Below are positions 24,001 to 30,000 of a DNA stretch of 64,000 bases, piece after piece; within the stretch, counting starts at the first letter, position 1; the number at the start of each line of letters is the position of its first letter. Made by a program: the position numbers. The stretch lies in NCBI GenBank assembly GCA_963696385.1, contig CAVOKF010000005.1, positions 992,001-1,056,000 on the forward strand, read 5' to 3'. This stretch comes from an uncultured delta proteobacterium (lineage in GTDB: Bacteria > Myxococcota_A > Polyangia > Polyangiales > Polyangiaceae).

Positions 24001-27000
24001 CCTCGGCGCCTGCACGCGCGCAGGGCCGCGTCGTGGAGATTCGCGTTGCCCGGCTTTTGAATCCGGCCGACGTCGAGTCCTTGCATTCCAGCGTTCGCGC
24101 AGCGATTGAACGCGCCGGTATAGGTGCGACCATTTGCGCCGACTGTCGCCGAACACTGCCTCTGTCGGGTCCTGTTGCGACCGCCTGGTCTCGTCATATG
24201 CGGAGCGCCAATCGCTCGATCGCCCGGAGCGCCCTCTTGCTCGACCCATCGAACACGATGTTCAACTTGCAGCTTGAGCGCATCGTTCGTTGTGCCGGCA
24301 ACCCGACGCGCCGCCTGTTCGCTGACGTCGACGAGCTCAGTGACTGGTTGGCCTCTGAACTCACGGAATGGGAGCGTCAGGCCCTGCGTGCCTTTCTCTC
24401 CGAGGGCGACCGCCCGTGCTCGCTCGTCCCGTGAAAGGGGCAGCGCTCTATTCCGCGCGCGAGGCCCAGGTGCCCGCAATGGATGCCTGCGAGCGCCATC
24501 AGCTGGCCCTCCGCGCAGCACTATCGCGTGTCGCCGCGCGCAGGGCCGAAGCGAGGGGTCTCGATCGCACAGGCGGGTTGCACAAGGAACGGCCAGCGCC
24601 CAGCTCTTTGCGATGGCCGCCAACGACTCGACCGCCCCTAAACGGCGGCGCTGGTATTTCGTTCGTGAAGAGCAACGGTCACGGCAGGTGGCTCATCGGA
24701 CCCGCCCGAGGAACCGCCATGGCCCACCGTTCATTTCTCGAGGAGCGAAACGTGTCGCCGACGGCGTTGTCCGCCATGGAGGGCTTCCACGCCGACATTG
24801 TACGCCAGGTGCAAGAGTGCGTTCGCCGCGATCCGGTCGTCGTCGTTGGAATGGCGCAGAACCCGCACGTGCGCAGGGTGCGCCAGGCGCTCGACGGGGC
24901 CGGAATTGCGTACACTTACCTGGAGTACGGCAGCTACGTTTCCCAATGGCGGCAGCGGCTCGCGATCAAGCTGTGGAGTGGGTGGCCCACCTTTCCCCAA
25001 GTGTTCGCGCGCGGAATCCTACTCGGCGGTGAGGACTTGACGAAGGCTGCCATCGCCGATGGTTCGCTCAAGTCCTCGATCGAGCACGCCGCGTTCGTCT
25101 CGCCCTGAGAACGACCAATCTGTCGGTGGGGTCCGGTTGCTGTCGAGGTCGGGTCGCGGCGCCGTCCGCCGTGGATTTCGAAAGGGCGCGGTGCCCAGTG
25201 GCCGAGTACGCTAGAAGGCCACAGCGCAGATGCAGACTGGGCGCGCAGGCAGAATGATCCTGATCGCCGTCGTGCTGCTCGCGGGAACGGCCGCGGTCGG
25301 CACGGCGCCGAGCGCACGACCCTTTTTGGCGCGAGGCTGGGCGACCGTAGTTTCCTCCCTATCGGCTTGGTCGGCATCCTCGACGACGGCGCCGAGCGGG
25401 ACCGCGAACGCGAACAGCAGCCGCGAAACCTCCCCGGCGCCCCACCGCCAGACGGCGCCTCTGTCGAGCGCCCAGCTCGGCGCGCCTCTCGTGCACGGTA
25501 CGATGCTCACAGCCTGCGGGGCGCCCGACGACCTCAAGGTGGTCGTGACCGTCGGCGTGAAGATGGGGCGTGCCGCCGACGTTGTCGTGAAGACCGTCCC
25601 CCCGAATTCGGTGGTCGCGGCCTGCATCGAGCGAGCCACCCGCGAGCTTCAGTGGGACATCAGCCCCAAGCTCGAGCATGTGACCGTGACGTACTGAACC
25701 GAGAACTCTCCGTCGAATGCCGGCGTGGGAGCGCGGTCGGATGGGCGCATTCGGAGACATGGAAGTGTCATCCTACGAGCGCGGTCCAGGGGGCGCATTC
25801 GAAGACACCAAGTGCGTCGTGGCGGACGGAGTGTCATTTGTAGGCGGGCGGTCGCTAACGCGAACGCGCGGAGACGCCAAGCGGACGGGGCCGTCGCGGG
25901 GTCGAGGCTTCTGCGCGCGTTCTCTCGTTCAGCCTTGTCGCTTACACCAGCGGCCAAGCACTCCCGAAACCCCGACCCGGACCCAATGAAGTCTCGTATC
26001 GCGAAATGGGTTTGACTCGACTCCGATGAGTAGGATTTGCCTGGAACATTGTGGCAAGACCGCTAATCGAGAGATACCATAAGCAATGTAGATTGATGCG
26101 AGGGTCGGCGCACTGTCACGATTCGGCCGCCACACGAATTTCGCTTATCGGGAGCTAAAGCCGCGGAGGGTCGGGGCCGTTGAAGATGACTCCCGTTGGA
26201 GACTCGCAAAGGCCGAAAAGCTCGCACCATTCGAGGGTAGGCAAGATGGGCAGCGTAAGCGTCACCGCAAACACCGGCAACGGCGACCAAGGCCCTGAGC
26301 GCATGGGTCCGTACGCGATCTACGATGCGATCGGGAGCGGGGGAATGGCCACCGTCCATCTCGGCAAGTTGCGGAGCGCTTCGGGATTCACGCGAACGGT
26401 AGCCGTCAAACGAATGCACGCCGAGCTCGCGAGATCGCCCGAGTTCGTCGCCATGTTCTTCCAAGAGGCTCGCCTCGCGGGACGCATTCAGCACCCCAAC
26501 GTGGTCGCCGCACTGGACTGCCTCGCGGTCGACCATCAAGCCGCTCTGATCATGGAATACGTGCATGGTCTGTCGCTCAACCAGTTGATGCGCAAGCCCA
26601 TCGTCCTCCCACGCTCGATTGCGTCCGCAATCGTCGTCGGAGCCGCCCTCGGCCTGCACGCCGCGCACGAGGCGGTCGACGAGAACGGGATAAACCTCGG
26701 CATCGTTCATCGGGACGTTTCGCCCCACAACATACTCGTTGGTGTCGATGGGCTTGCCCGAGTGCTCGACTTTGGGGTCGCAAAGGCCGCCGAGCAGGCC
26801 CAACTCACCCGAACCGGAGAGGTCAAAGGCAAGATTGGCTACATGGCCCCCGAACAGCTCCTGGGCGAGAGGGTTGGCCGACAGGCAGACGTGTATTCGC
26901 TCGGTGTCGTCATGTGGGAGCTCTTGACCGGGCGCCGGATCTTCGCGAGCGATGCTCAAGCTCAGATGATGATGAAAATCGCCACGTCCCAGATCGATCG

Positions 27001-30000
27001 ACCTCGCAACGTCAATACGAGTCTTTCGTTGCAGATCGATGAGGTCGTGATGAAGGCCCTCGCTCGATCTCCCGAGTCCCGATTCCAAACGGCTCTGCAG
27101 TTCGCCGCGGCCATCGAGTCGTGCATCCCGCCGTCGGGTCAGCGCGCCCTGGGCGAATGGATTGCGGCCGCCGGAAAGGAGGAGCTCGCTCGGCGTTCGG
27201 AAACCCGGGCGCGAATCGACCGCAGTCCGGCGGCCCAGACCGAACGGGAATCCGAGGACAACGAGTTCACGTCGCGTTACCGGGACAAGGATTTCGCCAA
27301 GCACGGGGTCAGTCGGATCGCCATGATCCGGCGTCGGTCCCCTGCGAAACTTGTAGCCGTCGCGACCGCGCTACTCGGGGCCGCAGCCGTGGCGACGGTG
27401 GGGGGAGCCTACTGGTTGCGTTCCCATGCGGGGGCAGAACCGAACCAATTGCAGGCGAATGCCTTGCGGGCAACGCTTGCGTCCGAGGTGCGCCCCTTCC
27501 CGGTGGATCCTTCCGAAGGGCACCCGTCCGAGGCGCAGCGATCGGAAATGCCCCCTTCCGCACCGAATGCCGACTCGGTTGCGACGGCCGTATCGAGTGC
27601 CGTTCCAGGTTTGTCGACTCATCACGAGGAGGTCAGTGCGCTGCCGGCTCATAGCGATGCGCCCAGCGCCAAGGTCGTCGATCCAACGACGGCGGACGTT
27701 GTGGCATCGCGGGGTGTGGCGCGCGTGCCGACCCGCCCGCGCGCGCCGAAACCAAAGGGCTCGAGTTCGCTCCAATCGGAGTTGGGCGCCATCGGCGGGA
27801 GGGAGTGACCTGTGAGCGGCGGGAGGCTCTGCGATGGATCCAGTGAACGCGCGACAGCCGACGGAGACGGGAATGCATAAGGATCGGTTTCCCGTTGTCT
27901 TGGGTTGTTTCGTGGCCTTTTCGAGCGCCATGGTGACCTCCGAGCAGGCGCGCGCCGGTGACGCGGCGGCCGCCGAAACGCTGTTTCGGGAAGGGTCGCA
28001 ACTGCTCGAGGCCGGCCGCATCGACGAGGCGTGTCCCAAATTTGCGGCGAGCCAGAGGACCGATCCGGCCCTCGGCACGCTGTTTTACTTGGCGGTCTGC
28101 CACGAGAAGCAGGGCCTCACGGCGTCGGCGTGGGCCGAATTCTCCTCGGCGACCGATTGGGCGCAGCGGTCGAACCAGCCCGAGCGAGAGCTGTTCGGCC
28201 GCAAGCACCTCGCGGCACTCGAAGCGAAGTTGTCGACCGTCGTCATTCGTGCGTCGACGGTCTCCGGGATCCAATTGCAGGTGGACGACGGGCTAGTGAC
28301 CGGCGCCGCCCTCGGGACACCGCTCCCGCTCAATCCAGGCGAGCACACCATCGAGGCCCGCGCGCCCGGGTACGAACCTTGGCACACGCGCATCACCGTG
28401 GCCGCTGTGAGAAAGACGGTCACGATCACAGTTCCCGCATTGACCCCGACTTCGGCCCCGGCGGACCCGGCTCCCCCGAAGGTCTCCGCCTCTCTGGCCA
28501 CCGCCCCCGCAGAAGACGAGTCGCGGATTGCGGCCGGTCGGTCGGCTTCGCGTGCCCTGGCATGGACGTCGGCGGGTCTCGCGGGGGCAGCCATCGTTGC
28601 GGGATCGGTGTTCGGTGCGTTGGCGTTCGGCGCGCGCGACACGGCGCAGTCCGACTGCCCGAACAATCGGTGTGTGCCCGGTGGACTCGCCGAGATCGAT
28701 CGCGCACGCACGTACGCAACCGTGTCGACCGTCGGTTTCGGAGCCGGCATCGCGGCCGCCGCGGCAACGGCCTATTTTTGGATAAGGGGTCAGGCAGGAA
28801 CGATCCCCCGAACCTCCGGGAGCGGGCCGGTAACGGTCGTTCCCGGCGTGGGCGCGCACGAGGCCAGCTTGTCGCTTCTCGGGCGATTCGAATGACAGGG
28901 TGCGCGCCGGGAGCGCAGTCGGTCCGTACCGCGATGCGGGCGCTGATTACCGCCCCGGTTTGGGCACTGGGGGGATGCAACCTCGTGGCCAACCTCGGCG
29001 AATTCGACAACGCCGTCGCCGATACCGTCGAGGCGGCGCCGGATGGCGAATCGCTGATCGGACCGGTCGCGGAGGCGAGTGAGGCGGGCGCCCCGGGCGA
29101 TTCGATCGTGGGCAGCGAGGAGGGTGGCGAATCGACGGACGCCGGGGTGGACCCGCCGGATACGGCGCCCGAGCCCGCGGCTGACGTCACCGGCGGGGAC
29201 ACGGACGATGCCATGCATGATCTTGTGGACGCTGCACCCGTGGCCATGGACGTGGCGGACGCGACCGATGCCGCGTCGGGTGCTGCCGACGCCGCGTTGG
29301 GTGCCGCCGACGCGGGTAAGCCCGCAGACCCGTCCGACGGCGGCACGTGGTGCGCCACCCACGTCTCGTCCATCACGGTCGACTGTCACGACTTCGACGA
29401 AGGGCGATCGGCCTCTGCCGGATTCGCCAGCAACTACTTTTCGTCCGTCTTCGCGAACGTCACCATGGCTGCCTATGCCCCCGGATCGGCTCCGAGCGCG
29501 CTTCTGATCACGACCCCGCTGCTCGCTGCCGGCGCCAGCGCCGCGTTCGAGCAATTCAACGACACCGTGTCCTTCCACGACAAGATCGAACTGAGCTTTG
29601 CCCTGAAGATCGCGAACTACGACTCCGCGGCGCCGGACGTGAGCCTGTTTCGCGTGTCCTATGAGGACAACTCGTGGGCGGAGTCGCTCGACTTCCAGCA
29701 GGTCGCGGCCAACTTCATCGAGACGGCATCGCCGCCCGACGGCGGAACCGACCGCGGGATTCACACTGCGGCGCAGCCGTCCACGCTGACGGATTGGACC
29801 AACGTGGATGTCTTGTACGACTTCGCCGGCCACACGGTGACGCTTTCCTACAACGGTGTCGCCGTTGTCATCGACCAAGCCATCCAGAACCTGGCGCCAG
29901 GGACTCCGTCGATTTTCGTCCAGGTCGGCCTCAATTTTTTGCAGGCGCCGACGCAATCGATGATGATTTACTACGACAACATTCTACTCGAGACACCCCC

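Follow-up and report, generated by a model that had tools for sequence, protein, structure and literature searches.

The closest precedents for the gene pair described here are RtkS/TagR-PpkA and GlnH-GlnX-PknG. RtkS of Serratia marcescens and TagR of Pseudomonas aeruginosa are periplasmic regulators of PpkA, a single-pass Ser/Thr kinase of the T6SS; the regulator bears a signal peptide, binds the periplasmic part of PpkA (~120 aa) and is required for PpkA to be stable or active, and the RtkS gene adjoins the kinase gene (PMC6082577). In Actinobacteria, the sensorless Ser/Thr kinase PknG, which uses a TPR scaffold, obtains an extracytoplasmic signal via the same-operon proteins GlnH and GlnX. 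Here we analysed a stretch of 64,000 nucleotides (the window) from the genome of a soil myxobacterium, in which a Hanks-type Ser/Thr kinase gene is followed by the gene of a TPR-PEGA protein. We lean towards the view that this protein is an extracytoplasmic accessory subunit, that is a co-receptor or regulator, of the single-pass kinase encoded just upstream.

The kinase of this pair (Table 1) scores 137 bits against the Pfam cut-off of 31.7 for Pkinase (E 9.7e-40) and contains VAVK, HRD, DFG and APE, with HRDVSPHN as the catalytic loop, in which the usual Lys is replaced by Ser; its tail is matched with full identity by a database protein of 520 aa. Together with the partner gene it forms an operon-like unit, which is supported by the 25-nt gap, by GGAGG 7 nt before the partner ATG and by the 4-nt overlaps found in many of the paralogous pairs. 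Neither terminator-like nor promoter-like sites were seen in 25500-29600. RNA-library contigs cover both genes, none of them bridging the junction. In the second pair of the window the partner ATG overlaps the kinase stop (ATGA).

Table 1. Features of the two kinase-partner pairs, in positions of the window.
Feature	Position	Strand	Basis or remark
Hanks-type Ser/Thr kinase gene	26246..27808	+	520 aa from ATG 26246; longest ORF from TTG 26180, 542 aa
Catalytic domain of kinase	26315..27088	+	residues 46-303 of 542-aa ORF; Pfam envelope
Single hydrophobic membrane helix of kinase	27350..27418	+	Kyte-Doolittle scan
Pro/Ala/Ser-rich kinase tail, probably extracytoplasmic	27419..27805	+	composition
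Conserved C-terminal motif of kinase tail, last 8 residues (...AIGGRE-COOH)	27782..27805	+	orthologue comparison
25-nt gap, GGGAGG 7 nt 5' of partner ATG	27809..27833	+	sequence reading
TPR-PEGA partner gene, 353 aa	27834..28895	+	family profile, Pfam, AF2
Signal-peptide-like N-terminus	27834..27956	+	h-region residues 19-34; A-R-A then G-D at 39-43
TPR bundle, residues ~42-130	27957..28223	+	AF2 pLDDT >90
PEGA-like beta sandwich, residues 134-200	28233..28433	+	sub-cut-off PEGA 19.3 bits; Foldseek
Helical hairpin, hydrophobic helices 241-267 and 294-317, C-x4-C (275-280) at tip	28521..28793	+	
C-terminal beta hairpin, end G-R-F-E	28833..28892	+	AF2 pLDDT 61-68 only
Second kinase, same build, Cys loop at tail end	47464..49263	+	Pkinase E 9.8e-36
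Second partner, composite: 4-Cys helical module and PEGA, then TPR, PEGA and hairpin	49260..50774	+	

The genome-wide survey's note had described the partner family as built of an N-terminal helix, a TPR bundle, a PEGA sandwich and a C-terminal helical hairpin, from a model of the first partner with pLDDT 78.5 (helices 63-130, strands 134-200, hairpin 231-323), and our AF2 rerun, built with 37 paralogues, reproduces this architecture at pLDDT 80.4 (63-130, 134-200 and 230-320). The weak Pfam matches mentioned there recur as well, TPR_2 in 17 and PEGA in 6 of 37 paralogues. In the first partner itself PEGA stays under the cut-off of 20.8 bits, TPR_2 and TPR_16 are weak, and no NCBIfam model matched; a solute-binding domain was found by Pfam neither in this protein nor in the 37 paralogues. 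The family profile matches consensus TPR structures with E 3.6e-68 to 2.6e-19, and the bundle has VIA matches at Z 14-15 and rmsd 1.3-1.5. For the PEGA-like sandwich, Foldseek returned carboxypeptidase-D-type regulatory domains (E 6e-4) and 9k1u_B of the RtkS-PpkA complex (E 3.5e-3, TM 0.66 on the target). Residues conserved in the family lie mainly at structural TPR and PEGA positions, and an aromatic residue is among the last three residues of 42 of the 48 paralogues. The partner is predicted to be exported, which its sequence supports: signal-peptide-like N-termini with AxA-like sites are present in 38 of 48 paralogues by a crude test. As to the topology of the hairpin, the conserved Cys pair at its tip would suit oxidising surroundings more than the cytoplasm. 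K+R counts there fall from 1.93 ahead of helix 1, through 1.57 and 1.37 at either end of the loop, to 1.27 behind helix 2.

Where 46 paralogues and 107 kinases had been claimed for the genome, our recount from six-frame ORFs and jackhmmer, whose crude gene model may shift counts by 1-2, gives 48 and 109. Each of the 48 ORFs reaches at least 118 bits over almost the whole profile, while the next match, at 94 bits, covers the TPR or PEGA part alone; kinase ORFs were counted at 100 bits or more. Directly downstream of a same-strand kinase lie 24 of the 48, close to the 23 adjoining paralogues reported before, and a count of 24 or more among 48 has a binomial P of 1e-29 if p is 109/6326, with 6326 being the gene number taken from the survey's note, or of 1e-22 if p is 0.0345. 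After the starts had been refined, 21 of the 24 intergenic gaps range from -28 to +66 nt (the other three are 133, 552 and 632 nt), and seven pairs show 4-nt stop/start overlaps. One further paralogue is separated from the kinase ahead of it by an FHA gene, one is divergent from a kinase, one lies inside a kinase ORF reading through in another frame, and ~20 of 48 have no kinase within 2.5 kb. Roughly one in four membrane Ser/Thr kinases of this organism is followed by a TPR-PEGA partner gene; ~30 kinases that are built alike lack one, and 18 of them have an unrelated downstream gene. The build claimed for the partner kinases was found in all 24, namely a catalytic domain, one hydrophobic membrane helix and a Pro/Ala/Ser-rich tail of 102-264 aa (median 131.5 aa, n=24), in which the median P+A+S fraction is 0.50 vs 0.22 in the catalytic domains of the same kinases. 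A folded ectodomain is absent from the partner kinases in most cases, and several kinase tails of the genome carry a PEGA-like segment. No fused kinase-partner chain was found: a search for longer homologues gave none, which is a weak negative, and a kinase domain is present in 0 of 11 long profile hits.

The tight, often translationally coupled pair is conserved across Myxococcota. In other genomes, 22 of the 29 best loci have a same-strand kinase upstream. So do 11 of 30 loci sampled from five distant families, each of which contributes one or more, and 56 of the 91 family ORFs in the whole set of fetched loci, a few places being counted from double fetches. The family had been called phylum-wide, which holds in so far as its profile matches 303 of the 401 genomes searched at E<=1e-10, a floor that may include part-matches. 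At E<=1e-30 it comprises 33,665 database clusters, and its ecto-modules vary, with extra TPR arrays, the 4-Cys module or a double PEGA.

A new observation, made by sequence comparison, is that the fast-diverging kinase tails finish in conserved C-terminal motifs, and that the class of these motifs tracks the ecto-module class of the partner and not the catalytic-domain tree. In a same-genus orthologue of the first kinase the AIGGRE end is identical, the rest of the tail differs, and the partner is merely 56% identical; AIGGRE also fits a tail end, [DE]-x-hydrophobic-x-x-x-R-x-COOH, that recurs across genera in other Polyangiaceae pairs. Tails ending in a Cys loop are accompanied by 4-Cys-module partners in 7 of 7 cases, the other tails in 0 of 17, and the composite partner of the second pair obeys this matching. 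Distances between tail ends and partners correlate (Mantel r 0.298, reached by 1 of 5000 permutations), also given the catalytic domain (partial r 0.269, 3 of 5000), and tail and catalytic domain, when the partner is controlled for, correlate at 0.082 (645 of 5000); since the paralogues share descent, the 7/7 table and the Mantel tests make the cases look more independent than they are. In two pairs of kinases the catalytic domains are 69-78% identical, and helix, tail and partner class are then completely divergent, with the breakpoints just past the catalytic domain. Covariation of tail end and ectodomain is expected of a two-chain receptor and not of co-regulation or of a cytoplasmic substrate, and it points to two-piece receptor kinases.

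In the model that we favour, the kinase tail would be a flexible extracytoplasmic tether, the C-terminal motif of which may dock on the exported TPR-PEGA or 4-Cys-module-PEGA part of the partner, in a manner modelled on C-terminal peptide binding by other TPR domains. The membrane hairpin of the partner would hold it beside the kinase helix, and occupancy or rearrangement of the ecto-complex by a ligand or by the envelope state could set oligomerisation, stability or activity of the kinase. Membrane helix, tail and partner may form a cassette that is recombined with different catalytic domains. The peptide-binding fold counts in favour of this model because the family profile matches consensus TPR and PEX5 (the latter at E 7e-6) and many peptide-bound TPRs are among the structural neighbours; by VIA, Rap, Sti1, Tah1, NprR and PlcR are reached at Z 12.6-15, values that are common among helical repeats. 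The complex predicted for partner residues 41-215 and the C-terminal 50 residues of the kinase has an ipSAE of 0.42 (runs 0.39-0.43) vs 0.11 for the best of three controls, rated as 'weak support'. In the calibration of this rating, 116 of the 157 solved complexes passed, as did 2 of the 215 mismatches; scores of 0.60 or under were seen in 18 of those passing solved complexes and in both mismatches. In the predicted complex the partner has pLDDT 47-49, contact agreement is at least 38%, and no interface was reported. The split-receptor reading put forward by the survey is thus far supported in part, by the operon-like pair, the predicted export and the tail covariation, and binding itself has the weak computed pass.

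Other readings have to be weighed against this one. The partner may bind the kinase as a constitutive stabiliser, membrane organiser or inhibitor in the manner of RtkS, with signals entering elsewhere; we hold this to be unlikely. It would agree with the binding of RtkS to the periplasmic domain of PpkA and its need for PpkA stability (PMC6082577), with the resemblance of the PEGA part to a chain of the RtkS-PpkA entry and with the mostly structural nature of the conserved residues, but the huge diversification into 33,665 clusters and the variable ecto-modules would be easier to square with recognition of varied inputs than with a chaperone of the housekeeping kind.

If the partner were a substrate or effector, the interhelix loop or another cytoplasm-facing part of which is phosphorylated by the kinase in control of an envelope function, the match between extracytoplasmic tail motif and ecto-module class would stay unexplained, and ~25 residues alone would face the cytoplasm, provided that the signal peptide is real. 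We consider this quite improbable, although kinases commonly share an operon with their substrates, an often-conserved Ser and further Ser/Thr lie in the loop that follows helix 1, and FHA proteins accompany some family members. Adjacency might also reflect mere co-expression of envelope proteins that do not touch, with tail motifs that bind the cell wall or another periplasmic protein. Half of the family members have no adjoining kinase, the same kind of C-terminal motif occurs in several partnerless kinases and the complex prediction is a weak pass, all of which would suit this scenario. It seems very improbable in view of the same-strand, kinase-first order, strong and conserved across families, of the stop/start overlaps and of the class matching despite discordant catalytic domains.

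The proposed accessory subunit resembles known systems in part. Its PEGA part matches a 76-residue chain of PDB 9k1u, either RtkS or PpkA. RtkS/TagR-PpkA is one T6SS-tied system per genome, whereas ~25 paralogous pairs per genome are found here; compared by fold and description, RtkS is a soluble protein for which no TPR is stated, and the partner here is anchored by a two-helix membrane hairpin. What the kinase contributes here is for the most part a disordered tail that bears a terminal motif, not a folded domain. With GlnH-GlnX-PknG the pair shares a kinase without its own sensor and a separately encoded same-operon partner; however, PknG is soluble, its relay consists of a solute-binding protein and the transmembrane GlnX, and no solute-binding domain was found here. 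Moreover, the TPR of PknG is cytoplasmic and the present one is predicted to be exported. Hop/Sti1 with the EEVD of Hsp70/Hsp90, PEX5 with PTS1 and the RRNPP receptors have the same TPR fold, and the ligand proposed here would likewise be a short C-terminal peptide, but those TPRs belong to the cytoplasm, and the partner family showed no identifiable carboxylate-clamp residues. MkapA-C of Myxococcus xanthus, reportedly named multi-kinase-associated proteins by Nariya and Inouye in 2005 and said to include a TPR protein, MkapB, are similar in that they too connect TPR proteins with Ser/Thr kinases of myxobacteria; they are reportedly cytoplasmic adaptors from two-hybrid work and not signal-peptide-bearing operon partners. 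PknB/PASTA and the myxobacterial kinase-PEGA chains are likewise single-pass Hanks kinases with an outside domain, but they carry the sensor in the same chain, whereas here the folded outside domains are found on a second polypeptide.

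The genome-wide survey's note had counted 46 members of this family of TPR-PEGA membrane proteins, 23 of them beside one of 107 kinase genes, and these numbers are reproduced within the error of a crude gene model: among 30,847 six-frame ORFs of at least 90 aa from the 6.94-Mb genome (8 contigs, about 66% G+C), 48 family members were collected by jackhmmer and 109 ORFs are kinases at a score of at least 100 bits. Every member reaches at least 118 bits with a match that spans nearly the whole profile, and the best non-member scores 94 bits with only its TPR or PEGA part covered. 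Directly downstream of a kinase gene and on the same strand lie 24 of the 48 members, which confirms the observation of a TPR-PEGA family beside kinases; the choice of the null moves the binomial probability of at least this number between 1e-29 and 1e-22. When partner starts were picked from signal-peptide-like N-termini before the gaps between the genes were measured, 21 of the 24 gaps fell between -28 and +66 nt, including seven 4-nt overlaps, and the three wider ones amount to 133, 552, and 632 nt. One further member is divergent from a kinase and several have a kinase 1-2.5 kb away. On contig C5, a kinase (1495297-1496733), a 309-aa ORF whose N-terminus was judged by eye to be FHA-like, and a member (1493211-1494326) all lie on one strand. 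On contig C7, a 1125-aa kinase ORF (1388821-1392198) does not stop where its relatives end and crosses a member (1390391-1391395, in locus L043) in another frame; this read-through may be due to a lost stop codon or to an indel in the assembly.

The focal pair of the window is an example of this arrangement, and its kinase belongs to the Hanks (eukaryote-like) Ser/Thr type. The ATG at 26246 as start of the kinase agrees with a 520-aa database protein, and the VAVK, HRD, DFG, and APE motifs are all found. In Hanks-type kinases a lysine is customary at the catalytic-loop site that is occupied by serine here, and an H-R-D-x-S loop occurs in 16 of the 109 kinases, seven of which are partnered, i.e., followed directly by a family gene. 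The 25 nt that separate both genes hold a GGGAGG sequence 7 nt before the partner ATG, and a scan of 25500-29600 revealed no site resembling a promoter or a terminator. RNA-library contigs from two studies, one with two runs and one with a single run, extend over stretches of both genes, with carry-over of DNA being possible; none of them crosses the junction 27808-27834, and a fourth run gave no contigs there. One RNA-library contig starts at 26184 straight after adapter letters, 62 nt before the ATG and 4 nt past the TTG at 26180, which hints weakly at where the sequenced molecule had its 5' end. In a single-protein search for related loci (four loci), the nearest named relatives of the focal partner are from Polyangiaceae, including a copy with 86% identity from a Polyangiaceae MAG; a relative in Sorangium cellulosum So0157-2 shows 35% identity.

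The 24 partnered kinases are all built alike, with a catalytic domain, a juxtamembrane stretch, one clear hydrophobic helix, and a tail of 102-264 aa (median 131.5) in which half of the residues are Pro, Ala, or Ser; two of them contain a second, weaker hydrophobic segment. The AlphaFold2 model of the focal kinase, computed from a four-row alignment, has a mean pLDDT of 30.9 over 520 residues and is uninformative on tail disorder, so that the tails are regarded as disordered from their composition and divergence. A homologue search with the tail region returned two proteins, 100% and 86% identical, which precludes a deep tail alignment. About 30 other kinases show the same build without this partner. 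A second common partner family was sought downstream of 18 unpartnered single-pass kinases, and the genes found there are unrelated to each other: they include MatE, a multicopper oxidase, histidine kinases, response regulators, and AlaRS as well as one 315-aa TPR_16 protein and one LysM match.

A crude script recognises, in 38 of the 48 members, a partner N-terminus in which basic residues precede a hydrophobic segment and an AxA-like site, part of the ten misses being due to the choice of the start codon. No NCBIfam model matched the focal partner, which by itself stays under the Pfam cut-offs for TPR, and 17 of 37 paralogues give a TPR_2 match (E<=0.01). Its AlphaFold2 model, with the 37 paralogues in the alignment, has a pLDDT of 80.4 and comprises TPR helices at residues 63-130 (pLDDT >90), PEGA strands at 134-200 (90-97), a Pro/Ala linker at low confidence, two helices at 230-274 and 282-320 (about 75-85), and a C-terminal beta hairpin (61-68). 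With the family profile, designed consensus TPR proteins are recovered at E-values from 3.6e-68 to 2.6e-19 over profile positions ~30-106, and PEX5 is recovered at 7e-6; the idealised TPR 1na3 superimposes on the model with a VIA Z of 14.2 and an rmsd of 1.3 over 85 aligned residues. An independent structural search returned many TPRs at Z 12-15, several of them peptide-bound, Z-scores of this size being usual among helical repeats. By profile match and by the predicted helix-turn-helix repeat fold, the partner is classified as a TPR protein. For the strands, PEGA (PF08308) reaches 19.3 bits in the focal partner against a gathering cut-off of 20.8, is found in 6 of the 37 paralogues (E<=0.01; best 3.8e-8), and is annotated on 32-74% of the members of neighbouring atlas clusters. 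Foldseek relates this part to the regulatory domains of carboxypeptidases D/N/M (E 6e-4 to 1e-2), and the strands are modelled as a small beta sandwich of the carboxypeptidase-regulatory/transthyretin-like kind.

At least two C-terminal hydrophobic helices are present in 39 of the 48 members. A cysteine pair in the loop between them was detected by script in 25 of the 48 members and in about 70% of the alignment rows; such a pair would be odd for a cytoplasmic loop, and it may mark a metal site or a topology other than the one assumed. With the signal peptide taken as cleaved, the simplest topology exposes the TPR-PEGA part and the C-terminus on the outside and leaves the loop inside, and a positive-inside charge count on the hairpin flanks gives no orientation. 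In 42 of the 48 members at least one of the last three residues is aromatic, and the beta-hairpin-like partner end is reminiscent of C-terminal signals that are read by periplasmic PDZ proteins or by the outer-membrane insertion machinery.

Features of the kinase-partner pairs; positions are those of the window unless a contig (C4-C7 of the genome, G000) or a fetched locus (L034, L161) is named
Feature	Position	Strand or protein	Basis or remark
Focal kinase ORF	26180/26246-27808	+	Pkinase PF00069, 137 bits against a gathering cut-off of 31.7
Catalytic loop HRDVSPHN, Ser at the Lys position of HRDxKxxN	26708-26731	focal kinase	sequence read
Focal partner ORF, 353 aa	27834-28895	+	sub-threshold PEGA and weak TPR matches (Pfam)
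C-x4-C pair at hairpin tip, between both hydrophobic helices	28656-28673	focal partner	
Beta-hairpin-like end, G-x-[FW] at or near C-terminus	28869-28892 and family alignment	partner family	
Second pair, stop/start overlap ATGA, partner ATG 49260	47464-50774		kinase tail ends in Cys loop
Operon-like run, 4-nt overlaps on both sides of the member	L034 1790-7420 = G000 C6:477458-483088		
309-aa ORF, FHA-like N-terminus	L161 10-939 = G000 C5:1494336-1495265	- (in L161)	between kinase and member
Kinase pairs with breakpoints	C4:107301-108857 vs C7:1364457-1366064; C5:859006-860625 vs C6:505368-507011		

The outer ends of kinase and partner vary together. In an orthologous pair of the same genus, whose partner is 56% identical, the kinase tail differs except for a basic stretch and an identical end, AIGGRE, and kinases of other Polyangiaceae pairs repeatedly finish in [DE]-x-hydrophobic-x-x-x-R-x-COOH. 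Within this genome the tail ends sort into classes that track the partner classes. A Cys loop closes the tail of seven kinases, with the form C-x-P-P-Y...C in six, and in all seven cases the partner ectodomain opens with a 4-Cys helical module that replaces the TPR or, in the second pair of the window, precedes it; both the Cys-loop tail and the 4-Cys module are absent from all 17 other pairs. This second partner is composite in its order, with a 4-Cys helical module and PEGA followed by TPR, PEGA, and hairpin. The second pair is flanked by genes for a BBP2-type beta-barrel porin (43584-45221) and an AcrB-family transporter (52332-54785).

Common descent of the paralogues weakens any test of such a match, and it has to be weighed against the following results. 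Over the 24 pairs, similarity of the last 25 kinase residues correlates with partner similarity at r 0.298 (equalled in 1 of 5000 permutations) and still at r 0.269 once catalytic-domain similarity is removed (3 of 5000), and the tail correlates with the catalytic domain given the partner at r 0.082 (645 of 5000). Two pairs of paralogous kinases that are 78% and 69% identical over leader and catalytic domain have partners of different classes, and their similarity is lost abruptly in the juxtamembrane stretch, the helix, and the tail. These breakpoints look like recombination, i.e., gene conversion or domain exchange between loci, in which helix, tail, and partner were kept together. In the class with R-x-COOH tails, enrichment of partner residues singles out positions 48, 73, 75, 77, 98, and 100 (focal numbering), an enrichment that is confounded by descent and is taken as no more than a lead. 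A complex prediction with partner residues 41-215 (37-row alignment) and the last 50 kinase residues (four rows) gave an ipSAE of 0.42 (runs 0.39-0.43) against 0.11 for the best control, which the tool terms 'weak support'; the partner pLDDT was 47-49, contact agreement was at least 38%, and no interface was returned. According to the calibration of the tool, passes this low are false in the majority of cases, except where the pairing was already probable before the test. The survey's note had read the pairs as split receptor kinases, and this reading is supported in part, by the conservation of the pair as a unit and by the co-variation of the outer ends; binding of the kinase, sensing, and the hairpin topology are what we infer.

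The pair is also conserved beyond this genome. At E<=1e-10 the profile matches 303 of the 401 phylum genomes searched, a floor in which part-matches are possibly counted. Among the 29 best loci from other genomes of the family and class, 22 have a kinase gene immediately upstream. Five genomes, each from a different further family, contributed 30 loci; 11 of these show this order, and all five families are represented among the 11. When every fetched locus is taken together, a few places having been retrieved twice, the count is 56 of 91 family ORFs. Public protein data hold 33,665 cluster representatives at E<=1e-30 by profile, carrying names such as hypothetical, PEGA domain-containing, or TPR protein, and the atlas neighbours are mostly from Myxococcota. 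No chain that fuses kinase and partner was seen among the longer homologues sought, which is weak evidence by the tool's own account, and none of 11 long profile hits contains a kinase domain; those carry longer TPR arrays. The neighbours of kinase-free members vary and include a hybrid histidine kinase, radical SAM, CcmE, and a PilZ gene beside a large kinase, among others. In the operon-like run of locus L034, a member follows an unknown 659-aa protein and a trypsin-like protease and precedes an FHA-sigma54 activator. Several unpartnered kinases have tail-end motifs like those of the partnered ones; two such kinases are located close to unpaired members outside any operon arrangement, and kinase and member may therefore pair in trans.

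To our knowledge, the inputs of nearly all of the approximately one hundred Ser/Thr kinases per myxobacterium are unknown. If a quarter of the kinases use a dedicated exported partner, ligands would best be sought on the partner ectodomains, the tail motifs would provide a simple testable rule for kinase-partner pairing including genes that lie apart in the genome, and a very large family that lacks a name could be assigned a function. A bolder idea, which we put forward tentatively and consider rather doubtful, is that a peptide-address code outside the cytoplasm insulates dozens of receptor kinases from each other: each single-pass kinase would present, at the tip of a disordered outer tether, a private C-terminal motif that only its cognate TPR-PEGA co-receptor recognises, by way of a TPR or a 4-Cys module, and the cassette of helix, tail, and co-receptor would be swapped between catalytic domains by recombination. 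If true, the input side of much of the myxobacterial kinome would become predictable from sequence.

The kind of arrangement is already known. RtkS/TagR-PpkA (PMC6082577) and GlnH-GlnX-PknG comprise separately encoded outside partners of a Ser/Thr kinase, and a review (PMC8538405) states that Perez et al. 2008 (PNAS) saw a conserved local context of kinase genes. Titles and abstract openings found for the PEGA domain with kinases mention nothing on this pairing, and a search on multi-kinase associated proteins/MkapB retrieved nothing relevant. As far as these searches reach, what is new is the family with its scale, its hairpin in the membrane, and the tail-end motifs that match the partner class, and Perez et al. 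2008 may already list the neighbour family. Neither the partner nor any of its 37 paralogues matched a solute-binding-protein family, and the partner thereby differs from the GlnH-GlnX relay, which combines a solute-binding protein with a multi-pass transmembrane relay. With the RtkS/TagR type the comparison is one of function: the focal partner has a signal-peptide-like N-terminus in a crude export test, its gene lies beside that of the kinase as in this type, and its sandwich is similar to one chain, 76 residues long, in entry 9k1u of an RtkS-PpkA complex. No Pfam or NCBIfam model of RtkS or TagR matched the focal partner. Where the RtkS/TagR type binds its kinase directly, the present pair has a weak computed pass over the best control. 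If binding and sensing are as we suppose, the pairs would constitute another bacterial case of two-chain receptor kinases beside RtkS/TagR-PpkA and GlnH-GlnX-PknG.
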